The translations under genes and the position numbers were made by a program. Source: an uncultured Pseudomonadota bacterium (lineage in GTDB: Bacteria > Pseudomonadota > Alphaproteobacteria > RF32 > CAG-239). Taken from it: 60,396 bases of DNA. The stretch spans positions 1 to 60,396 of the forward strand of contig CADAAN010000005.1 of the NCBI GenBank assembly GCA_902785935.1, written 5' to 3'. Of this stretch, positions 1-53,768 are shown piece after piece (positions within the stretch are counted from its first letter, which is position 1; the number at the start of each line of letters is the position of its first letter). Under the pieces are notes generated by a model that worked only from the letters and a program-made list of their open reading frames with translations, searched no databases and was not told where the DNA came from.

Positions 1-2564
<2,564 letters not shown>

Positions 2565-4231: not shown

Positions 4232-4260
4232 TTGACATTTGTCTATTTATATGCCAAAAT
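4232..4260 (+). promoter_or_regulatory. Putative sigma70 promoter of leader copy A
   Basis: TTGACA (4232-4237), 17-nt spacer, CAAAAT (4255-4260). Confidence 0.45.
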
Positions 4261-4266
4261 TAAGGC

Positions 4267-4514
4267 ATGACAGGTGAAGTAATTTATCTGTCAAGTGCCA
4301 GATAAGGGCACGGAGCTTTGAACAGCTCTACAAGCTGCAGTGAGGATAACACTGTGTTTTATAGTGTTGTTTTTTTGTTTTAAACAACATTTATCCCCGA
4401 AAAGTCGGGGGATCTGTGGCGTATGTACAAGGTTTAAACCTAAAGACCACGGAAGTCATTCCAGCTTGTATGATTGTTCAATTCCCCGTTGCTCTCAAAG
4501 GTGCGACTTTTTTT
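4267..4514 (+). promoter_or_regulatory. Structured two-terminator 5' leader RNA, family copy A
   Basis: Shares the ordered blocks of copies B-F: GUGCC..GGCAC hairpin, GGAGC hairpin, terminator 1 (AACACU/AGUGUU + U-run, 4348-4376), AUCCCCGA/UCGGGGGAU hairpin (4393-4413), GUGG...CCAC helix enclosing GUAUGUACA..CUAAAG, AGUCAUU, AUGAUU, and CCCC followed by terminator 2 (4487-4514). Confidence 0.75.
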
Positions 4515-4541
4515 AACAAACTTAATCATAGGAGAATCAAT

Positions 4542-5609
4542 ATGAAAGAAGAATATATCGATAAAATGGCTGAGGATTTAGCAAAAAAAGGGCTTTTAGA
4601 AGAACATCGCTTATATATGAGCTCAAGCATAGAAAATGTTTATAAAGAAAATCTGATGAGTTTTAAATCGCATTTGGAAGGGATTGCAAAAGAAGGCTTG
4701 GAATATAAAACAAATAGTACTTGGTCTGATAATAAAGAAATTACTCCTGATGAAATTGTCGCACGCGGTACATGGTATCTTGATGCAAAACGAGAAGGAA
4801 TAGAAAGGCTAAAAAAAGACCATGAACAATCCTTAAAAAAAGAAAGAGAAGCTGAGATTATTAATGACAAATTTCAACGACTTGATGAAATGAGAGAATT
4901 TTTGCGTGGATGTCCTGCTTGTGAGTATTGCTCGTATGATCAAATTATGGCTTTGGCTTCAGACAAAGCACAACAAAAAAACGTTACGCTCTTTGAATCA
5001 AAAGAACAACCGACAAAAGGTATAAAAAGACTTTTTATGAGCAAGAAAGAAAAACAAGCAGAAGCCAAGAGAATTGAAGAAAAGAAAAAAGCATATGAAA
5101 ATGCAAATAAATTTATCAATCAATTTGCCTCAAAATACCAAAATGATCCAATCATTCGGGAAGTCAATTCATTTAAGCTGGCGCAAGAGCTTTGGGCAGA
5201 TGCTTACAGTGCTAAAGAAAGTTATGACGGCGGAAAATTTGTTTATTTTGATAAAGAAAAAAATGCCTATGAAATCAGCGAGTTTGAAAAATTAGAGGCA
5301 TTATATAAACCGGCTCAGGAAAAAATTCAAAGCCAGTTGCATGAAGAAGTTCAATTAAAACAAACTGCGCGTGAGACATCCGGTGTAAAAGATATTGAAA
5401 ACAATACGGGCGTTGATATACTTTCCTTAAAGGAAGAAATCAGAAATAATGCACCCTCAGGTAAAGATATGTCTTCAAAAGAGCTTTATCAGGCAATGAT
5501 GAAAATGCGCGGTTTAGGCAAAGCGACAGAACATTCTTCATCAAAACAAGATTTCAGTCAATCAACTATTGATTTAAAACAAATTAGAAGTAATGAAGAA
5601 CATAGATAA
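4542..5609 (+). CDS. Hypothetical Lys/Glu-rich protein (355 aa) with no signal peptide and a CPACEYC motif
   Basis: ATG at 4542 is preceded by GGAG (4531-4534). The longer ORF-track start at 4416 lies inside the leader RNA. Confidence 0.6.
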   Translation: MKEEYIDKMAEDLAKKGLLEEHRLYMSSSIENVYKENLMSFKSHLEGIAKEGLEYKTNSTWSDNKEITPDEIVARGTWYLDAKREGIERLKKDHEQSLKKEREAEIINDKFQRLDEMREFLRGCPACEYCSYDQIMALASDKAQQKNVTLFESKEQPTKGIKRLFMSKKEKQAEAKRIEEKKKAYENANKFINQFASKYQNDPIIREVNSFKLAQELWADAYSAKESYDGGKFVYFDKEKNAYEISEFEKLEALYKPAQEKIQSQLHEEVQLKQTARETSGVKDIENNTGVDILSLKEEIRNNAPSGKDMSSKELYQAMMKMRGLGKATEHSSSKQDFSQSTIDLKQIRSNEEHR

Positions 5610-18599: not shown

Positions 18600-18851
18600 C
18601 AGATAAGAAAGTTTAGGCTTTTTTATCAAGTACCCTGATAGGGTGCGGAGTTTCTTAAGGCTCTATTAGCTGCGATGATAGGATACATCGTAATTTTATG
18701 GTGTTTTTTTGTTTTTAAAACACAATTATCCCCGAGATTTTAGTCGGGGGACTTGTAACGGATGTCCAAGGATTTTCCTAAAGGTTATAAGAGTCATTTC
18801 AGCTAATATGATTTTAAGATTCCCCGTCGCTCCTCAAGGCGCGGCTTTTTT
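18600..18851 (+). promoter_or_regulatory. Structured two-terminator 5' leader RNA, family copy B
   Basis: Same block order as copy A: GUACCC..GGGUGC hairpin, terminator 1 at 18685-18710, AUCCCCGAG/UCGGGGGA hairpin, GUAAC...GUUAU helix enclosing GGAUGUCCA..CUAAAG, AGUCAUUU, AUGAUU, and CCCC followed by terminator 2 at 18824-18851. Confidence 0.75.
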
Positions 18852-18891
18852 AATATGTAATGACATGCAAAATAAAAACAGGAGAAAAAAT

Positions 18892-19788
18892 ATGAAAAAA
18901 TATATTTTGATTATCGGATTGATCATATCATGGAGTGCAAAGGCAAGTGATGAAATAACGATTGTGGCTCAAACAGACCCGAATGATGCTTCAACAAAAT
19001 GCGGGAATGATTGTACATGGAAACTTTACAGCGACGGCCGGTTTGAAATAACAGGAACAGGTGCCATGTATGATTACGGGCAAAAACACGGAATTAATAC
19101 AAACTGGGCTGTAGATGGTTCTCCTTGGGATGATTATATCGATCAAATTAAATCCGTCGACATTTCACACGGCATTACGACAGTAGGAAATAGCGCTTTT
19201 AAAGGAGCCTTAAATTTAAAAAATGTTCAAATACCAGAGGGTGTGGTATCAATCGGAAATGGCTCATTTATGAGCTGTCAGATGCCTGAAATCAAATTAC
19301 CGGATTCACTCAAAAAAATAGATGCTTGGGCATTTGCAGAAAGTGTATTTTCAAAAATTGATATACCTGTTTCTGTCGAAGAGATAGGACGAGCTGCATT
19401 TTGGGGTACAAGAATCGGAACACTTGTCTTGCCGGATTTGCTCAAATCTATGGCAAGTGATGTATTTTACGCATCTACGGTCAACACAATTGTAATTTCA
19501 GATAAGCTCAGCAACATTGATCAAGGCGCTTTTAACGGCGCAATTCATTTACAATCGATTTACTGCACCGGCGATGTCGATGTTTGCAAAACAAATGTCG
19601 GCGAAAGTTTTGCCGATAAAGTCAAAAAAGCCTCAATAAAGAAAATTAACGGCGTGACATATGTTGTTGATAACAAAGGAAAAATTGTCGCGACATCCGG
19701 CCATCGTACAGAAAAACGCATTTATACAATCGATGAAGCAAACCAAGTTGCTGGAAAAATAAATTCGGTCTCAATTCGGTATCGATAA
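18892..19788 (+). CDS. Secreted BspA-type leucine-rich-repeat protein with C-terminal RIYTIDEAN...IRYR tag
   Basis: Start at 18892 after GGAG. Signal peptide MKKYILIIGLIISWSAKA. Repeats of the type IxxIGxxAFxxC/xxLxxIxIP. The last 24 aa are KRIYTIDEANQVAGKINSVSIRYR. Confidence 0.85.
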   Translation: MKKYILIIGLIISWSAKASDEITIVAQTDPNDASTKCGNDCTWKLYSDGRFEITGTGAMYDYGQKHGINTNWAVDGSPWDDYIDQIKSVDISHGITTVGNSAFKGALNLKNVQIPEGVVSIGNGSFMSCQMPEIKLPDSLKKIDAWAFAESVFSKIDIPVSVEEIGRAAFWGTRIGTLVLPDLLKSMASDVFYASTVNTIVISDKLSNIDQGAFNGAIHLQSIYCTGDVDVCKTNVGESFADKVKKASIKKINGVTYVVDNKGKIVATSGHRTEKRIYTIDEANQVAGKINSVSIRYR

Positions 19789-19975: not shown

Positions 19976-20530
19976 TTAAATTATGTAAATATAAATTTCT
20001 GCATTTATGCCAAATCTTGAAGATTTATGCCTTTTATACTCTTTAAGATAAGATAAAGGATAATCTGCCGCGACGACAAAGCTTTCGTGTTTTAATTCTT
20101 TCTTGAGTTTTAATCCGACCTGATCGCCCTGTGCTTTAAGCACATAAGCAAAAACAACATTAAATACAGACAAATTTTCTTTCATATAATTTTTTTGCTT
20201 AAAAACGATATTTTTCAATCCTCTTGCCTTTTTTCTTGAGATTTGTATTAAAATCGGATCCCATTCATAGCCGATAAAACGATGCTGCGGAAATTCTTTT
20301 GCAAGCGGTATTAATACGCTTCCCGTCCCGGAGCCTAAATCAACAATTTTGAGTGATTTATTTGATGTTTGAAGCTTATTTTTTAATATCAATCGTACAT
20401 CTTTGCCGATTTTAGAATTTGTCGGTACAAACGGCGCAAATTTTCCGCATCCGTTCAAAACATAGGAATAAAGACAAAAACAGACCCATAAGAATGAACA
20501 AATAAAAATTAAAAAGGCGATATATAACAT
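19976..20530 (-). CDS. Class I SAM-dependent methyltransferase with an N-terminal membrane anchor
   Basis: VDLGSGTGSV motif I. The start is taken at ATG 20530, after GGGGA. The longer ORF (to 20647) overlaps leader copy F. Confidence 0.7.
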   Translation of the reverse strand: MLYIAFLIFICSFLWVCFCLYSYVLNGCGKFAPFVPTNSKIGKDVRLILKNKLQTSNKSLKIVDLGSGTGSVLIPLAKEFPQHRFIGYEWDPILIQISRKKARGLKNIVFKQKNYMKENLSVFNVVFAYVLKAQGDQVGLKLKKELKHESFVVAADYPLSYLKEYKRHKSSRFGINAEIYIYII

Positions 20531-20558
20531 TATTTTTCCCCAAATGATGAAACAGTAG

Positions 20559-20777
20559 AAAAACCACCTTTTAAGGTGGTCAGGGCGTTCATAAATCATA
20601 TATCTCGAAATGACTTTGATGGTCTTTAGAAAAAAAATCCTGAACATTCACCATCAACACCCCGACCGAATGTCAGGGATATAATTTGTTTTGACAGCTA
20701 TCCAACTGTCACGAGATATAAAGGTTTATGAAAACCCCGCACCTTTTCGGTGCTGTACGGCACAATATAACCATACT
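20559..20777 (-). promoter_or_regulatory. Structured 5' leader RNA, family copy F (divergent; terminator 1 lacks a U-run)
   Basis: Minus strand reads GCGGGGUUU..AAACCUU hairpin, GACAG..CUGUC hairpin, AUCCCUGAC/GUCGGGG hairpin, UUGAUGG...CCAUCAA helix enclosing GAAUGUUCA..CUAAAG, AGUCAUUU, AUGAUU, CCCUGAC, then terminator CCACC/GGUGG + U5 (20559-20580). Candidate promoter TTGTTT-17-TATACT at 20784-20812. Confidence 0.6.
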
Positions 20778-33032: not shown

Positions 33033-34085
33033 TTATCGATACCTTATCGAAAAAGTATTTCTCGAACCCGCAACAAAATTAGCCTCTTCAATGGTATAAA
33101 TCCGGCGCACATCGTAATTGCCTTTTAAAAGGTCATTGATGCTTTGATACGTTTTGCCGCCATATTTGAGCATATAATTGCCGTCGCTTGCAACCAAAGC
33201 GTCGCAATCAGCGTCTTGGCAAATCCCGCGGTTGATTAAAGCCTGCTTTTTACAATGGTTTAATGTATCTGCGCAAACATACTGTGCTTTTTCTTCAGCA
33301 CTTGATGCCGTATCGCCTTTTTTCATATCATCGGATGAAAGGTAATAATCATCGCCAATCACATAAACCCCGCCATCAAAGGCATAGCTTTTGACTTCCG
33401 CATCATCGCCGCGATATGCTATCGCCGCCGCGCACTCTGATATGAGCGATTCGGGACAATACAGGTTTGTGAGGTTTTTTAGTTTATAATTCTCATAACC
33501 TTCCAAATCACCAAAAGATTCCAAAGCCACAGTGCTAACAGAAGGCGGAATAACAAAATCTGTCAACGCCGTATCAGCAAATGTCATATACTTAATACTT
33601 GTCACATTTTCCATATTGCCGTTGACTTGAGTTAAAGTTTGTGTCGCAAATGCCCAATCTTCAATTTCTGTCACACTGTCAGGGATAGTAATGCTTGTTA
33701 TTTTACTACGATGAAGTGATTGAACCCCGATTGATAACAGACCTTCCGGCAATGTAATTTCTTTGATAGATGTATTTGCAAAAGCAGCTCGTCCGACTGT
33801 TGTAATTCCACTTTCAACATCAACTTTTGTAATACTGGCATTCCCCCACCAAGGCGCATCTGTCCGATAGCCGACACCGGGTTCGCTCCAACGATAATAA
33901 TCTTTGATTTTAGCCGGTTTTGAGGCGTCAATCGGGGAGATTGTTAAGGTGTATGTTGTGTTGCCGTTGTCATCCGTTCCGTTTTCGACATAAGAATATG
34001 TGCAATTTTCCCCGCACGAGGGTAATTCCTCGGCATTTGCGTTAAAACTTGCTATCAAACCTAAAATCAAAACATATTTTCTCAT
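33033..34085 (-). CDS. Secreted BspA-type LRR protein with C-terminal tag
   Basis: Start at ATG 34085 after AGGAG. Signal peptide MRKYVLILGLIASFNANA. LRR units such as ITTVGRAAFANTSIKEITLPEGLLSIG. Ends RRIYTIEEANFVAGSRNTFSIRYR*. Confidence 0.85.
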   Translation of the reverse strand: MRKYVLILGLIASFNANAEELPSCGENCTYSYVENGTDDNGNTTYTLTISPIDASKPAKIKDYYRWSEPGVGYRTDAPWWGNASITKVDVESGITTVGRAAFANTSIKEITLPEGLLSIGVQSLHRSKITSITIPDSVTEIEDWAFATQTLTQVNGNMENVTSIKYMTFADTALTDFVIPPSVSTVALESFGDLEGYENYKLKNLTNLYCPESLISECAAAIAYRGDDAEVKSYAFDGGVYVIGDDYYLSSDDMKKGDTASSAEEKAQYVCADTLNHCKKQALINRGICQDADCDALVASDGNYMLKYGGKTYQSINDLLKGNYDVRRIYTIEEANFVAGSRNTFSIRYR

Positions 34086-34107
34086 ATTATTTCTCCTGTT
34101 TTTACAT

Positions 34108-34265
34108 AAAAAATCCATCTTGAATAACTCAAAATGGAGGAGCTAAGAAACTGTCATCGTACAGCTTTTCTTATTCGCCGCATAACTGCGCTTATCTCGA
34201 AAACTCCTCTGTAAAGGAGTTGCACGATGAATGTGTTTCTTAAACACCGCAACCATTTTGGTTAC
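34108..34265 (-). promoter_or_regulatory. Divergent two-hairpin/U-run leader (possible 7th family member)
   Basis: TTTACA-17-AATAAT promoter (34272-34300, minus strand). Then GCGG + GUGUUU..AAACAC hairpin, ACUCCU..AGGAGU + UUUU (34198-34220), and CCAUUUUGA..UCAAGAUGG + U6 (34108-34137). The conserved single-stranded blocks of copies A-F are not recognisable. Confidence 0.35.
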
Positions 34266-34332
34266 ATTTTGATTATTGCACATGAAAAAGAAAATGTAAA
34301 GGATTTTTTATCAAAATTTTGTAAGAAAAAAA

Positions 34333-38482: not shown

Positions 38483-38511
38483 TTGACTATTAACAAATTG
38501 TGTGGTTTAAT
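38483..38511 (+). promoter_or_regulatory. Putative sigma70 promoter of leader copy C
   Basis: TTGACT (38483-38488), 17-nt spacer, TTTAAT (38506-38511). Confidence 0.55.
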
Positions 38512-38517
38512 GAAAAT

Positions 38518-38772
38518 CGGATGGGAAAAGGAATTTTTCTATCAAGTGCCTGAGACGGGCGCGGAGCTTTCCAAAGCTCATTGACCTTAGACAGTGAGGA
38601 TAACACTGTATTGATGTGGTGTTATTTTTTGTTTTAAATAACACATTATCCCCGAAAAATGATCGGGGAGCCGGTAGCGGATGTTCAGGATTTTTAATCT
38701 AAAGGTTATCGGAGTCATCTTCTAAGGTATGATTTTGGAACTCTCCGACCGCTCTTTTAGGGGCGGTTTTTT
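38518..38772 (+). promoter_or_regulatory. Structured two-terminator 5' leader RNA, family copy C
   Basis: GUGCC..GGGCGC hairpin, GAGCUUU/AAAGCUC hairpin, terminator 1 AUAACAC/GUGUUAU + U6 (38600-38630), AUCCCCGA/UCGGGGAG hairpin, CCGGUA...UAUCGG helix enclosing GGAUGUUCA..CUAAAG, AGUCAUC, AUGAUU, and terminator 2 ACCGC/GCGGU + U6 (38748-38772). Confidence 0.8.
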
Positions 38773-38809
38773 GGTATTGTCATCGCGTCACGATACCATA
38801 AGAAGAACA

Positions 38810-38963
38810 ACAACTATTTTTTGTAAAGGAATTAAAAAAATGAAAAACAATGAAAACGGCCGTTCAATGGTTGAAATGCTCGGTGTACAACTATTTTTTG
38901 TAAAGGAATTAAAAAAATGAAAAACAATGAAAACGGCCGTTCAATGGTTGAAATGCTCGGTGT
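38810..38963 (+). repeat. Perfect 77-bp tandem duplication covering the RBS and first 16 codons of the pilin-like gene
   Basis: 38810-38886 equals 38887-38963: acaactattttttgtaaaggaattaaaaaaatgaaaaacaatgaaaacggccgttcaatggttgaaatgctcggtgt. Confidence 0.95.
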
Positions 38964-39552
38964 TTTGGCGATTATCGGCGTCTTGTCAGCCGGCGGTTTG
39001 GCAGGTTATTCAAAGGCCATGTTCAAACATAAATTGAATACCACTATGGATCAAATCACAATGCTTGTGACGAATATCCGCACAATGTATGGCACACAAG
39101 GAAATTATGCGGGACTTGATGGTAATAAGGCCTATGACTTAGGCATTATTCCAGCAGTGATGGCTGAAGATGGTAGAAAAACAAATGACGGAGTGACCAC
39201 TGGTGGTGTTTCTTTAACAAACCCATTCAAAGGTAGTGTTTCTATTGCAGCAGTCGAAATTAAAACAGGTGATTTAGCATCGGCCACAACAACAGATGCA
39301 ACAAAATCAACAGGTTTTAGCGTAACTTACGATGGTTTGCCGAAAGAAGCTTGCATCGCGTTGTCAACAGCCGATTTTGGTTCAGGAGCAGGTTCTGGTT
39401 TTATCGGCGCTAAAATTACCGGTAAAACACAGTCTGGCACTTATGGCTCTACAACAGAAGGTGACGCCTACACAATGGCAGGAAAAGGTTCTGTCCCCGG
39501 TGCAATAGATGCTTGTAGCGAAAATACAGCTATTACATGGTTTTTCTATTAA
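38917..39552 (+). CDS. Type IV pilin-like / pseudopilin-like protein 1
   Basis: N-terminus MKNNENG|RSMVEMLGVLAIIGVLSAGGLAGY has Gly at -1, Glu at +5 and a hydrophobic helix. Residue +1 is Arg rather than Phe or Met. Confidence 0.7.
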   Translation: MKNNENGRSMVEMLGVLAIIGVLSAGGLAGYSKAMFKHKLNTTMDQITMLVTNIRTMYGTQGNYAGLDGNKAYDLGIIPAVMAEDGRKTNDGVTTGGVSLTNPFKGSVSIAAVEIKTGDLASATTTDATKSTGFSVTYDGLPKEACIALSTADFGSGAGSGFIGAKITGKTQSGTYGSTTEGDAYTMAGKGSVPGAIDACSENTAITWFFY

Positions 39553-39586
39553 TCTTTTGAGTTTAATTCAATAAAGGAATAAAAAT

Positions 39587-40243
39587 ATGAGAAATTTTAA
39601 TGAAAGCGGCCGTTCAATGGTCGAGATGCTTGGTGTGTTAGCTATCATTGGTGTGTTATCCGCCGGTGGTTTAGCAGGCTATTCCAAAGCGATGTTTAAG
39701 CACAAATTGAATACGACGATGGATCAAATTACGATGCTTGTAACAAATATCCGTACGATGTATGGAACGCAAAAAAGCTATGCCGACTTAGATAATGATC
39801 AGGCCTTTAAATTGGGTATTATTCCTCCAGCAATTGCAACGGCTCTGGGAGGTCCATATAGAAATCCATTTAAAGGGAATGTTGTCATTAGTGGTAAAAC
39901 AGCAAAAGCAAGATCAACAGCTCCTGTTGGTACAGCATTTATCGTTCAATATACTGGTTTACCTACAGAGGCATGCATCGCTTTAGCAACAGCTGACTTT
40001 GGTAGCGGTGCCGGTTCAGGTTTTATCGGTGTCACAGTTGATGATGTTGATACACCAAAAATTGGTGAAGGTGATAATGATCCGACTGATATCGCAATTT
40101 ACATAGGTGATGGGGCTGGTAAAACAGCTGATGGTGCTACAGCTGCCACTAAACTACGTGGCGAAGGTGAGGCATATCAAATGTCTGCAGCCATCACAGC
40201 TTGTTCTGGCGCTACAAATAACATTACTTGGAAATTCTACTAA
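39587..40243 (+). CDS. Type IV pilin-like / pseudopilin-like protein 2 (paralog)
   Basis: Residues GRSMVEML...TNIRTMYGTQ are identical to those of protein 1, although the codons carry many synonymous differences. Shared EACIAL.TADFGSGAGSGFIG block and ITW.FY C-terminus, with a variable middle. Confidence 0.7.
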   Translation: MRNFNESGRSMVEMLGVLAIIGVLSAGGLAGYSKAMFKHKLNTTMDQITMLVTNIRTMYGTQKSYADLDNDQAFKLGIIPPAIATALGGPYRNPFKGNVVISGKTAKARSTAPVGTAFIVQYTGLPTEACIALATADFGSGAGSGFIGVTVDDVDTPKIGEGDNDPTDIAIYIGDGAGKTADGATAATKLRGEGEAYQMSAAITACSGATNNITWKFY

Positions 40244-41370: not shown

Positions 41371-41429
<59 letters not shown>

Positions 41430-41447
<18 letters not shown>

Positions 41448-41619: not shown

Positions 41620-41671
41620 GTCTTCTCATACCCACCAATTAAAAAAACCGACCTTCATGGTCGGTTTTTTT
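41620..41671 (+). repeat. Direct repeat 2: second copy of the tRNA-Val 3' end plus terminator
   Basis: gtcttctcatacccaccaattaaaaaaaccgaccttcatggtcggttttttt, 190 bp downstream of repeat 1. Confidence 0.9.
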
Positions 41672-41707
41672 ATACAACAAGGAGCGCCATCCACATGGCG
41701 GGTGTTT

Positions 41708-43232: not shown

Positions 43233-43462
43233 CGATGGAAGTGATTTCATTGAGAACCGAGAGGTTCGGGGCTGTAGCAGGCTCTATGTTCAGTGATACC
43301 AGAAATGGTATCCTTTTAGGATGCCTTTTTTTGGTATTTAAATCCCCGCTCGGGTGGGGAGATTATGGCGTATGTACAAGCCTTAAAGCTAAAGGTCATA
43401 ATGGTCATTACACTGAACATGATTTGCTAACTCCCCTGCCGCTCAATTGAGCGGATTTTTTT
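43233..43462 (+). promoter_or_regulatory. Structured two-terminator 5' leader RNA, family copy D
   Basis: GAACC..GGUUC hairpin, terminator 1 GGUAUCCU/AGGAUGCC + U7 (43307-43332), UCCCC..GGGGA hairpin, UUAUG...CAUAA helix enclosing GUAUGUACA..CUAAAG, GGUCAUU, AUGAUU, CUCCCC, and terminator 2 CCGCUC/GAGCGG + U7 (43439-43462). Confidence 0.7.
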
Positions 43463-43465
43463 GTA

Positions 43466-43541
43466 ATGACGTTAACAATAACAACGTCATCCTGAACTTG
43501 TTTCAGGATCTTTTTAGATCCCGAAATAAATTCGGGATGAC
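43466..43541. repeat. Nested-palindrome (three-hairpin) MITE/REP-like element between leader D and the RBS
   Basis: ATGACGTT..AACGTCAT, ATCCTGAA..TTCAGGAT and GATCCCGAA..TTCGGGAT hairpins, closed by outer complementarity GTCATCC...GGATGAC. Absent from the equivalent position in copies A, B, C, E and F. Confidence 0.5.
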
Positions 43542-43558: not shown

Positions 43559-44686
43559 ATGAAGAAATATGTTTTGATTTTAGGAATACTCGCAAGTTTT
43601 AACGCACAAGCAAATGAAGGTTGGAAAAATTGCGATGATGAAGGCAGCTCAAATTGTGAATATCAAATCAAAGACGGCGTTTTAACCGTCCGTCCGCAGG
43701 ATGATACGCAACCTGCAAATATTCCGGATTTCGCAAGAGATTGTTCAATGACACGGTATTCTGAGTGTACGACAACCGCACCATGGAAATGGGATGAGAA
43801 TACAAATACGATAACAACCTTAAAAGTTGAAAATGGTATCACTTCTATCGGATCAGATGCTTTTGAAGATATGCCTTTTACAACGGCACACTTGCCCGAC
43901 ACCTTAACTTCAATCGGAAGTTTTGCTTTTCTAGAATCAGGTAAGTTAGGGTACATTAATTTACCGAACAAGCTTGAAACAATAGGTGATTATGCTTTTA
44001 CCTCCAATTTCTCAAGTCAAAATAATAATATTGTTATTATTCCTGATTCGGTTAATGAAGTTGGAAAGTATGTTTTTTCAGGAGGAACGGAGAGAATTGT
44101 CGTGGGTGGAAATACGAATCTTGACCCTGATGCATTAATTTATTACGGACAAACAAGCACGAAAATCCAGTTTAACCATTTTACAATGTATTGCGCCGAA
44201 AGTAATACATCTTGCCAAGAAGCGATTGAAAAAGCTTTGAATTTTGCAAAAAATGCCGGAAATGCTGATGTCTCTGCACAAGCTTCTGATTTTCTTACAA
44301 CTTACACCAAGGACGATAACGGATTTTATCAAATCGGTGATAAACTTTATGCAACGGCAGATTTGATGACCAAAGGCGCTGCTTGTGATAATCCGCAAAA
44401 CTGCCGAGATATTTTAGATGCCGCATCACAAGGCAAGCCTTTTGAAGTCGGCGGCAAATATTACGCTACGCTTGATTTGTTTGCAAGGGGCGCGGCTTGC
44501 ACGGACAAACAAAATTGTGAAGATATTTTGGCCTCAAACGGGGCGCCTTTCAAAGTCGGTTCAAAAATCTACAATTCGATGGAAGATTTTGCTTTAGGCA
44601 ACAATATCAAATTCCGCATCTACACCATCGATGAGGCGAATGAGGTCGCGGGAAAGACAAATTCCTTCAAAATCAGGTATCGCTAG
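43559..44686 (+). CDS. Secreted BspA-type LRR protein with C-terminal tag
   Basis: Signal peptide MKKYVLILGILASFNAQA. LRR units such as ITSIGSDAFEDM..LPDTLTSIGSFAF..LPNKLETIGDYAF. Three GxKxY..DL..G modules. Ends FRIYTIDEANEVAGKTNSFKIRYR*. Confidence 0.85.
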   Translation: MKKYVLILGILASFNAQANEGWKNCDDEGSSNCEYQIKDGVLTVRPQDDTQPANIPDFARDCSMTRYSECTTTAPWKWDENTNTITTLKVENGITSIGSDAFEDMPFTTAHLPDTLTSIGSFAFLESGKLGYINLPNKLETIGDYAFTSNFSSQNNNIVIIPDSVNEVGKYVFSGGTERIVVGGNTNLDPDALIYYGQTSTKIQFNHFTMYCAESNTSCQEAIEKALNFAKNAGNADVSAQASDFLTTYTKDDNGFYQIGDKLYATADLMTKGAACDNPQNCRDILDAASQGKPFEVGGKYYATLDLFARGAACTDKQNCEDILASNGAPFKVGSKIYNSMEDFALGNNIKFRIYTIDEANEVAGKTNSFKIRYR

Positions 44687-52544: not shown

Positions 52545-53492
52545 TTAGCGATACTTTATTTTAAAAGAATTAACTTTACCTGCGACCTGATTGGCCTCAT
52601 CAATGGTGTAAATTTTTTTATTCCTAAAACCAATAATATTATTATCAGCATCTAAAATTGTAACACTTCCATCAGGTTTTATGATTTCTTGCTTTGATGG
52701 TAGCGCATTTCCTTTTACAAGATCTTCAAGAGAAGCATATTTTTCCCCTCCGTATTCTAAAATTTTCCCATCAGAGCTTGCTTCTATAAGAGCAGGACAT
52801 TCATCTTCGTCACACAAGCCTTCTTCTTGCAAAAATGCCATTTGAGCTTCGTATAATGAACTAAACCAACGTCCATCATCATAAAACATGTCATCAAAAT
52901 AAAAATAATACATTTCTTGTGAACCGCAAAAATAAATTCCACCATCTTCTTTTGTATACCATTCCAGATTGGTTGTTCCTTTCTTGGGATTTAATATTCT
53001 TCCATCGTTCATCCAAGAAGAACCTTCTGGAATAAACATAGCTTCTATAGATATATAATCAAATGCTCCATTTTTTACTTCCGTAACCGAATCCGGAACA
53101 ACCAATGCATCTGATTTAAGTCCTGCAAACGAATATTTTCCTATTGAATTTAAGGAATTTGGTAAAGATACGTACTCTAAATCATAAGATTCAAAACAAT
53201 CTCCATGAGCACAGTGGCCAAAAGCATAATTTCCAATATTTTGGATGCCTTCTGCAACATAAATGTTAGTTATATCAGGCACATAAGATTTCCATGGTAC
53301 ATCATCTTGATGCTCATAATCATCCATTACGGCTGTATCTCCGTTTGTCGGCTCGATGATTAAAGTGTAATCATTACCAATTTTCCAACTGCAATTTGTA
53401 CCGCACGTACCACCCTCTGCAACAAGTGCATTTGTTTGTGTGGATGAAAACATTCCGATAAAAAATGTAAATACAAGAATTTTATTTTTCAT
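52545..53492 (-). CDS. Secreted LRR-containing protein with C-terminal tag
   Basis: Signal peptide MKNKILVFTFFIGMFSSTQTNA. CGTNCSWKI...PW N-terminal module as in the other members. LRR units such as IQNIGNYAF, LPNSLNSIGKYSF. Ends KKIYTIDEANQVAGKVNSFKIKYR*. Confidence 0.8.
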   Translation of the reverse strand: MKNKILVFTFFIGMFSSTQTNALVAEGGTCGTNCSWKIGNDYTLIIEPTNGDTAVMDDYEHQDDVPWKSYVPDITNIYVAEGIQNIGNYAFGHCAHGDCFESYDLEYVSLPNSLNSIGKYSFAGLKSDALVVPDSVTEVKNGAFDYISIEAMFIPEGSSWMNDGRILNPKKGTTNLEWYTKEDGGIYFCGSQEMYYFYFDDMFYDDGRWFSSLYEAQMAFLQEEGLCDEDECPALIEASSDGKILEYGGEKYASLEDLVKGNALPSKQEIIKPDGSVTILDADNNIIGFRNKKIYTIDEANQVAGKVNSFKIKYR

Positions 53493-53520
53493 ATTTTTTC
53501 TCCTTATTTTTTACGTCATT

Positions 53521-53768
53521 AAAAAAAGTCGCACCTTATAGAGCGACGGGGAGTGTGAAAATCATGTAATGGAAAATGACTCTGGTGACCTTTAGGTAAA
53601 CCTTGTACATTCGTCGCCAGCTCCCCGAGCATTTTTCGGGGATATTCGTGTTTAAAAATAAAAAAACACTATAAAGTTACAGTGTATCTATCACTGTCCA
53701 TTACAAAGGCTTTCACAAGCCCCGCACCCTATCAGGGTACTTGATAGAAAAATCACTTTTTCCATCCG
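53521..53768 (-). promoter_or_regulatory. Structured two-terminator 5' leader RNA, family copy E
   Basis: Minus strand reads AUCGGAUGGAAAAAG..UCAAGUACCCUGAUAGGGUGCGGGGCUU..AAGCC, terminator 1 ACACU/AGUGU + U7 (53655-53685), AUCCCCGA/CUCGGGGAG hairpin, CUGGCGAC...GUCACCAG helix enclosing GAAUGUACA..CUAAAG, AGUCAUUU, AUGAUU, CUCCCC, and terminator 2 GUCGC/GCGAC + U7 (53521-53547). Confidence 0.78.

Follow-up and report, generated by a model that had tools for sequence, protein, structure and literature searches.

The window analysed here, a 60,396-nt stretch of DNA from an uncultured alphaproteobacterium (GenBank assembly GCA_902785935.1, contig CADAAN010000005.1), carries six copies of a leader RNA that precedes protein-coding genes and ends in an intrinsic terminator (T2). 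This leader almost certainly represents a genuine and new family of structured RNAs. In its core, the long-range helices H3 and H4 close H5, H6, H7/H8, and H9, and two pseudoknots (PK1 and PK2) together with a 2-bp bridge lock the whole in place. We consider it likely that the leader is a cis-acting element that controls transcription termination in one way or another. Leaders of that kind are known, but neither Rfam 15 nor the literature searched describes this family, the way it is built, or the scale of its regulon.

The element was originally recognized by a model that read the letters of the window and proposed six homologous copies, A to F. A covariance model (CM) built from these six copies returned exactly six strong matches in the window (173-257 bits), each at the position and on the strand proposed, and the next best match scored 13.4 bits. 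A MAFFT alignment of the six has a mean column identity of 67% and contains the invariant blocks AUCCCCG...GGGG, AUGU.CA, CUAAAG, GUCAU, and AUGAUU.

The original prediction had recognized no known class of RNA in the element, and Rfam 15 (4227 models, among them cyclic di-GMP (c-di-GMP)-I/II, ydaO, T-box, EAR, raiA, ROOL, GOLLD, and ribozymes) likewise gave no family match. At the gathering score, the whole window yielded two tRNAs only; at E<=10 over copies C and D, the only match to overlap an element was one of 16 bits, which is at chance level; and at E<=1, six divergent loci gave no match on their elements. Full-text searches of the literature found no description of the element, which could still be an unnamed entry in one of the large supplementary motif lists. 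Similarly, term searches within a 224-motif paper (PMC5737381) and a human-microbiome survey of structured RNAs (PMC8040213) turned up no description.

Structure of the leader RNA

The fold rests on covariation in two independently ascertained sets, from which the covariance model recovered 109 (set 1) and 116 (set 2) copies. Standard base pairs fill 95.1% and 94.8% of the cells in the two alignments, versus 37-50% when the partners are slid by 1-3 columns, and 0/500 shuffles reached the observed pairing values. Double-sided changes are seen in 51/62 and 55/62 of the modelled pairs, with >1100 compensatory cells, counts that come from alignments fitted to the model and are inflated by kinship among the sequences; the effect is very large, and it is repeated in the independently ascertained set. 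The proposal that selection acts on RNA structure was therefore well founded. Frequent G-U pairs fit one strand only, which fixes the transcribed strand. The RNA is about 230-270 nt long, with a core of about 190 nt including a variable module. We regard these structural claims, as well as those on distribution made below, as very secure.

Several elements of the fold were already contained in the original prediction. Its GUGCC/GGCAC-type hairpin is H2, its AUCCCCGA/UCGGGGA hairpin is H6, its covarying helix is H7, and its conserved AGUCAU and AUGAUU form the 5-bp stem of H9. The conserved unpaired blocks that it listed, G.AUGU.CA and (C)UAAAG, constitute a near-invariant internal loop between H7 and H8, and AAAG is near-invariant also in a sample that was not selected for AAAG. 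However, this anatomy was incomplete, with H1, H3/H4, the two pseudoknots, and the bridge missing. The block predicted at the 3′ end does contain T2, but its C-rich part is actually the 3′ strand of the long-range helix H3. Similarly, the short hairpin predicted after GCGG(A/G)G exists as a conserved local hairpin, but overlaps the 5′ strands of two long-range helices.

These long-range helices close the core. H3 pairs GG(A/G)G with C(U/C)CC, and its column pair 92-406 is split between GC (47) and AU (38). H4 comprises 7 bp, five of which occur with 3-4 pair types each. The local hairpin, with the consensus GG(A/G)GCU...AGCUYU, is mutually exclusive with H3 and the first pairs of H4.

The strongest covariation signal of the scan came from PK2, an 8-bp pseudoknot in which the strand immediately 5′ of H5 pairs with eight of the 10 nucleotides in the H9 loop. 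Its sequence differs in nearly all copies. Across 179 unique sequences, cognate PK2 duplexes have a mean of -9.0 kcal/mol versus -1.7 kcal/mol for permuted partners, and 92% of the cognate duplexes, versus 3% of the permuted ones, are at <=-6 kcal/mol. H9 itself was frozen by the first of the two search patterns described below; in the independent set it covaries (GUCAU/AUGAU, GCCAA/AUGGC, GUCGU/GCGAU). PK1 is formed by the H5 loop, GAUA(A/U), and the sequence (U/A)UAUC where the strand enters H6 (A:U 56, U:A 43, mismatched 2).

The 2-bp bridge, which runs from the junction of H6 and H7 to the internal loop between H3 and H4, is 99.5% paired with compensatory changes: column pair 321-402 is paired in 106/106 copies (AU 92, UA 5, UG 5, GU 4), and column pair 322-401 in 105/106 (GC 97-98, AU 7). 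A longer helix between the 3′ arm of H6 and the 3′ strand of H3 is possible but unproven, and would not disrupt T2 anyway. Its bridge end is real, its far end is paired in only 77-86% of copies, and its G4/C4 middle fits either alternative; two types of the half elements described below do close with the longer helix.

Occurrence and downstream genes

We scanned a collection of species-representative genomes with a pattern of four conserved blocks (pattern 1). At least 100 loci matched and, among the matches listed, all were in 25 uncultured metagenome-assembled genomes (MAGs). These are labelled Alphaproteobacteria, Rhodospirillales, Rickettsiales, or proteobacterium and, where the sample name tells, originate from the rumen, reticulum, or faeces of deer, yak, reindeer, and horse. 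Among the same matches, RGIG5118 holds at least 25 loci, RUG11221 at least 23, and RGIG4812 at least 11. Since pattern 1 itself fixed four blocks, metagenomes were scanned with pattern 2, which consists of H6 and the first block only. This gave at least 120 further loci, some labelled human gut and many of them from the rumen, judging by contig names. Public data contain >220 occurrences of the element. The copies are old and diverse, sharing a median of 57% identity in pairwise comparison. The nearest fetched loci, among which the genome of the window itself was not included, are about 75% identical to the window in DNA sequence over mfd; we therefore take the genome of the window to be another species of the same clade.

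In some higher-GC relatives (loci L113 (8670-9510), L104, L126, L141, L152, L165, and L180), two or three elements stand in series ahead of a single gene. The upstream members are often partial "half elements" that comprise H7/H8/H9 only, lack T2, and are closed by a GGGGAG arm pairing with a CUCCCCGG strand.

A co-oriented open reading frame (ORF) with a ribosome-binding site (RBS) follows 94 of 106 pattern matches, typically 15-45 nt past T2, and this short gap leaves no room for a second promoter. In set 1, 53 of the 94 downstream ORFs encode BspA-type leucine-rich repeat (LRR) proteins, and the other products include LRR_8 proteins, type IVb pilins, PEGA, RHS, sulfatase, acyltransferase_3, and small HTH_3 regulators. 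The classes of set 1 recur in set 2, which adds autotransporters, a secreted nuclease, and glycosyltransferases. Judging by these annotations, the downstream genes form a coherent class of mainly surface, secreted, or envelope proteins, in line with the surface-protein regulon that had been proposed to lie behind a common leader. Within the window, Pfam bears out the gene identities given in the original prediction for copies B to F, and has no match for the ORF that follows copy A (Table 1).

In many of the leader-controlled LRR proteins (e.g., 18892-19788, 43559-44686, and 52545-53492), the LRR_5 repeats are preceded by a signal peptide and then by a short N-terminal motif rich in Cys, C-G-x-x-C-x-W/Y (e.g., CGNDCTW, CGTNCSW). 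At copy C, the RBS and the initial 46 nt of the pilin ORF occur twice, in a perfect 77-bp tandem duplication (38810-38963; units 38810-38886 and 38887-38963). A short ORF that is out of context begins in the first unit (ATG at 38841), and the gap between T2 and the pilin is widened to about 145 nt. This could be a recent duplication or an assembly artefact.

The remaining genes of the window are those of an ordinary chromosome (LepA, GlgB, Rho, tRNA synthetases, RpoD, Mfd, DnaN, and RecF in the Pfam annotation). A seventh BspA-type LRR gene (33033-34118) has another, shorter leader at 34100-34300 (-), which is predicted to be strongly structured (z = -5.6), has a promoter-like site of its own, and ends in a terminator-like hairpin. 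This leader scores 13 bits against the family model and may be a reduced or decayed derivative of the family; the ortholog of the LRR gene in RGIG5118 (L021) is preceded by a canonical element. A large ORF at 15-2564 (+) has a C-terminal YadA-like membrane anchor, as in a trimeric autotransporter adhesin. Its listed start is base 15, at or near the left edge of the window, and its upstream region lies outside. Finally, a sub-threshold Rfam match to the enterobacterial small RNA (sRNA) STnc370 at 41637-41703 (-), with 39 bits versus a gathering score of 54, adjoins a tRNA gene (41371-41444), resembles a terminator-type hairpin, and is probably due to chance.

Table 1. Positions in the window of the six leader copies, of the parts of exemplar copy C, and of the genes that follow
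Feature	Position	Strand	Evidence or remark
Copy A, leader RNA	4267-4518	+	CM 246.3 bits; alignment
Copy A, promoter -35 TTGACA	about 4232-4237	+	
ORF 3′ of copy A	4542-5609		Pfam: no match
Copy B, leader RNA	18600-18856	+	CM 246.7 bits
BspA-type LRR gene 3′ of copy B	18892-19788		LRR_5, E=1.4e-35
Copy F, leader RNA, without H5b/T1 module	20552-20777	-	CM 173.4 bits; alignments
Methyltransferase gene 3′ of copy F	19976-20530		Methyltransf_31
Copy C, leader RNA (exemplar), predicted start to end of T2 U-tract	38518-38778	+	CM 252.6 bits
Copy D, leader RNA	43233-43466	+	CM 187.7 bits
Copy D, canonical T1	43307-43325 plus U7	+	terminator scan
Copy D, T2	43439-43454	+	terminator scan
LRR gene 3′ of copy D	43559-44686		LRR_5
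Copy E, leader RNA	53517-53768	-	CM 256.8 bits
LRR gene 3′ of copy E	52545-53492		LRR_5
Copy C, promoter: -35 TTGACT (38483-38488), 17-nt spacer, -10 TTTAAT (38506-38511)	38483-38511	+	read from sequence
Copy C, H1, 5′-terminal hairpin, 10 bp	38520-38543	+	sequence variable among copies; double changes in 10/10 pairs
Copy C, H2, hairpin GUGCC...GGCGC	38546-38562	+	abuts H3 without linker; 99.6-99.8% paired, 4-5/5 pairs covary
Copy C, 5′ strands of long-range closing helices: H3 GGAG (38563-38566), H4 UUCCAAA (38569-38575)	38563-38575	+	
Copy C, local alternative hairpin GAGCUU/AAGCUC	38564-38579	+	95.5% paired, 5/6 pairs with double changes
Copy C, PK2 5′ strand (ACCUUAGA)	38584-38591	+	partner is the H9 loop
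Copy C, H5 hairpin; loop AGGAUAA (38597-38603) forms PK1	38592-38608	+	covariation, PK1 test, H5/T1 energetics
Copy C, optional T1/H5b module	38600-38644	+	
Copy C, T1 hairpin AUAACAC (38600-38606)/GUGUUAU (38619-38625)	U-run to 38630		not called by strict terminator rule
Copy C, alternative hairpin H5b	38619-38644	+	
Copy C, PK1 3′ strand (UUAUCC)	38646-38651	+	overlaps first H6 bases
Copy C, H6, hairpin CCCCGA/UCGGGG	38650-38668	+	near-invariant sequence; pair 280-316: GC 71, GU 24, AU 10
Copy C, bridge AG	38669-38670	+	partner CU at 38741-38742
Copy C, H7 (38671-38678 with 38705-38712)	38671-38712	+	all 8 pairs covary
Copy C, internal loop inside H7	GGAUGUUCA (38679-38687)/AAAG (38701-38704)	+	
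Copy C, H8, hairpin inside H7	38688-38700	+	variable length
Copy C, H9 (GUCAU/AUGAU), 10-nt loop	38714-38733	+	PK2 3′ strand (UCUAAGGU) at 38721-38728
Copy C, 3′ strands: H4 (38734-38740), bridge (38741-38742), H3 CUCC (38743-38746)	38734-38746	+	
Copy C, T2, 9-bp hairpin then U-tract	38747-38772	+	directly abuts H3; terminator scan
Copy C, regulated genes: two type IVb-like pilins (38917-39552 and 39587-40243)	38917-40243	+	Bundlin/PilS Pfam, prepilin N-terminus

Proposed termination control and its alternatives

As the original prediction had it, the copies carry promoters of their own. A sigma-70 match of >=9/12 lies upstream of 76/102 family members, versus 3/91 control positions, and the -10 element ends 5-7 nt before the start of the RNA in 79/102 copies. 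T2 passes a test of energy and U-count in 86% of copies, and a strict canonical rule in 60-77%. The first terminator (T1) had been assigned to all six copies of the window, but is missing from copy F. It is an optional module that about half of the family carries: in 91/172 unique copies, a U-run directly follows a hairpin built with the loop and the 3′ arm of H5. T1 is more stable than H5 in 78 of these 91 (-9.0 versus -5.6 kcal/mol). Because T1 takes the H5 loop and 3′ arm and is usually the more stable hairpin, the two are a genuine antiterminator (H5) and terminator (T1). An alternative partner for the U-run is an A-run further downstream, and the resulting hairpin, H5b, can form in many copies, A, B, C, and E among them. 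Between T2 and the start of its LRR gene, copy D has a further terminator-like hairpin, its third, at 43489-43509 (+) (ATCCTGAAC...GTTCAGGAT, then CTTTTT).

The regulatory mechanism and the signal are matters that we infer from this layout. We tentatively favor a riboswitch-type element of conditional termination, in which the RNA might directly sense a small molecule, possibly a signalling nucleotide. Direct sensing is favored because the fold is complex, invariant bases lie in an internal loop, and there is a switching helix reminiscent of a riboswitch P1, in that the local hairpin competes with the closing helices H3/H4. T2 itself takes part in no alternative pairing. The predicted strong promoter would fire constitutively, and most transcripts would stop at T1 or T2. 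Displacement of the local hairpin by H3/H4 would let the pseudoknotted core bind the small molecule. A cellular signal could thereby alter read-through, such that all of the adhesin, pilin, and envelope genes respond together. Since no linker separates T2 from H3 and H2, we speculate that closure of the junction could influence T2 sterically or by stacking, in either the ON or the OFF direction, instead of by way of a classical antiterminator. The most far-reaching form of this proposal, a new riboswitch class that senses a signalling molecule and switches an entire adhesin, pilin, and envelope repertoire (>=25 genes per genome) via junction closure, is conceivable, but we think it doubtful.

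Riboswitches for c-di-GMP control pilin and adhesin genes, and are present in many copies per genome, in Clostridioides and Geobacter. The c-di-GMP-I/II (GEMM) riboswitches resemble the leader in having pseudoknots, helices that covary, and unpaired bases that are invariant, with an intrinsic terminator behind them, as well as in their many copies per genome and their control of pilin, adhesin, and surface genes. In contrast to them, the leader has no Rfam match in sequence or structure, its core is larger (about 190 nt), its main terminator has no mutually exclusive antiterminator, and there is an optional extra terminator inside the leader. The T-box leaders are similar in being multi-helix RNAs of 200-300 nt that occur many times per genome and decide between termination and read-through. 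However, the present leader has no T-box sequence, specifier loop, or Rfam match to that class, and its genes are unrelated to amino acids; its helices of variable sequence (PK2 and H7) pair within their own RNA, not with an RNA in trans; and its host belongs to the Alphaproteobacteria, whereas T-box hosts are Firmicutes or Actinobacteria.

Several observations weigh against direct sensing by the RNA. Both arms of T2 were scanned against all upstream sequence for an antiterminator, and no conserved partner was found, with <=31/103 copies sharing any position. Two candidate T2 antiterminators, GCGG (5′ H3 strand)/CCGC (T2 5′ arm) and GGAGC/GCUCU, were dropped, as both are too short and lack covariation. 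T1 is transcribed before the conserved core, and is therefore beyond its control. The copy number (>=25 per genome, with 6 in 60 kb) is unusually high for a riboswitch, and the set of downstream genes points to no ligand. Lastly, no GGDEF domain was found in 1.6 Mb of element neighbourhoods, although this is a weak test, given that only these neighbourhoods were covered.

Some of these features would suit a protein factor. Antitermination by a dedicated RNA-binding protein, which would sit on H5 and/or the core and let polymerase pass T1 and T2, is unlikely in our estimate, though more probable than the other rivals. Models include BglG/LicT on RAT hairpins, ANTAR proteins, or a specialised NusG paralog (LoaP, UpxY, RfaH), and the leaders of the RAT/BglG-LicT, ANTAR, LoaP, and UpxY systems likewise have an antiterminator hairpin that overlaps a more stable terminator, as H5 and T1 do in this classical layout, and terminators ahead of genes for surface structures. 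A factor acting on the 5′ part would fit the fact that T1 is decided before the core is transcribed, T2 is without an RNA antiterminator, and two or three terminators in series, as with the third hairpin of copy D, suit a factor that modifies polymerase. Nevertheless, neither a RAT nor an ANTAR consensus is present in the leader, whose doubly pseudoknotted core is far more complex than the antiterminator RNAs known to be bound by proteins. Nor was a cognate protein found: the Pfam annotation of the whole window contains no candidate, and tblastn searches for NusG, RfaH, CsrA, Hfq, and NusA in 1.6 Mb of element neighbourhoods found only Hfq. Moreover, the conserved H5 loop, the sole place in which GGA is conserved, is already explained by its pairing in PK1 and T1, and CsrA-type GGA sites were rejected on the same ground.

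The Hfq match, in one MAG, is a homolog with 43% identity over 63 aa to the protein of E. coli; its gene is at 5056-5244 (-) of locus L055, just 3′ of a leader-controlled gene. The leader-bearing clade therefore encodes Hfq; the adjacency is probably coincidental.

We consider two further explanations improbable, and about equally so. The first is processive antitermination or insulation by RNA alone, as with put of phage HK022 or EAR, in which the RNA would make its own polymerase resist T2 and later terminators, so that the gene is expressed only by transcripts from the cognate promoter. EAR is a pseudoknotted RNA linked to cell-surface exopolysaccharide operons (eps, Bacillales). Like put and EAR, the leader is a structured cis-acting RNA ahead of intrinsic terminators; it shares pseudoknots and the tie to surface operons with EAR, and T2 follows its core without a linker or a competing structure. 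However, put and EAR are not homologous to it and occur once per operon, whereas the leader is regulon-wide, with an internal terminator and a competing hairpin. It matches neither EAR nor any other Rfam model, T1 is situated inside the element, before the core, and a constitutive device would not need a conserved competing local hairpin.

The second is an abundant, stable, trans-acting sRNA, such as a protein sponge or a scaffold for a ribonucleoprotein, with the downstream genes being transcribed by leaky read-through only. Strong consensus promoters, a 5′-terminal hairpin, an efficient terminator, and many copies per genome would be expected of such an RNA. What it fails to account for is an orientation that is always fixed, a tight spacing to the downstream RBS that leaves no room for a separate promoter, downstream genes that form a coherent functional class, and copies that have diverged to 57% identity with the fold alone being kept.

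It is more improbable still that the leader is a self-cleaving or otherwise catalytic RNA in the 5′ untranslated region, glmS-like or from a new class of ribozymes, by which the mRNA would be processed or destabilised. The compact, doubly pseudoknotted fold, its invariant unpaired nucleotides, and the many copies per genome, as in some ribozyme classes, would be compatible with catalysis, but no ribozyme in Rfam matches and the conserved terminators point to transcriptional control.

Attenuation by a leader peptide was rejected, as had been anticipated, since ORFs that start at the conserved AUGAUU vary from 3 to 59 aa and have unrelated sequences, with indels and compensatory changes throughout. 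Phage origin was rejected as well, given that pattern 1, with its >=100 genome loci, had 0 matches in 2.9 million viral contigs. Finally, a non-functional dispersed repeat, be it a miniature inverted-repeat transposable element (MITE) or a mobile promoter cassette, is effectively refuted: although the elements are multi-copy, intergenic, often at the contig ends of MAG assemblies and, like Correia, ERIC, and REP-type MITEs or "mobile promoters", bear promoters upstream of unrelated genes and fragment such assemblies, they lack terminal inverted repeats (local score 8.0 versus 7.3 shuffled) and target-site duplications (n=97; the flank direct-repeat score averages 7.0, a figure that stands without a shuffled control), are absent from the viral contigs scanned, have a strictly fixed polarity relative to the downstream gene, and are so deeply diverged, with pairing kept through the >1100 compensatory changes, that the original prediction was right to exclude a recently spread repeat.

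Implications

The family adds a well-supported orphan RNA class with >200 diverse members and two pseudoknots, which lends itself to searches for a ligand, structural studies, and the development of tools. A mechanistic question arises as well, namely how an intrinsic terminator without a competing antiterminator becomes conditional. In practice, the covariance model could be used to annotate genomes of this kind and to predict their surface-protein regulon. If the proposed regulation is true, with 6 copies in 60 kb this would be among the largest known cis-regulatory RNA regulons per megabase, and a single RNA fold would govern the majority of the surface proteins that face the host (BspA-type LRR adhesins, type IVb pili, autotransporters, and envelope-modifying enzymes) of widespread, never-cultured Alphaproteobacteria of the gut and rumen.

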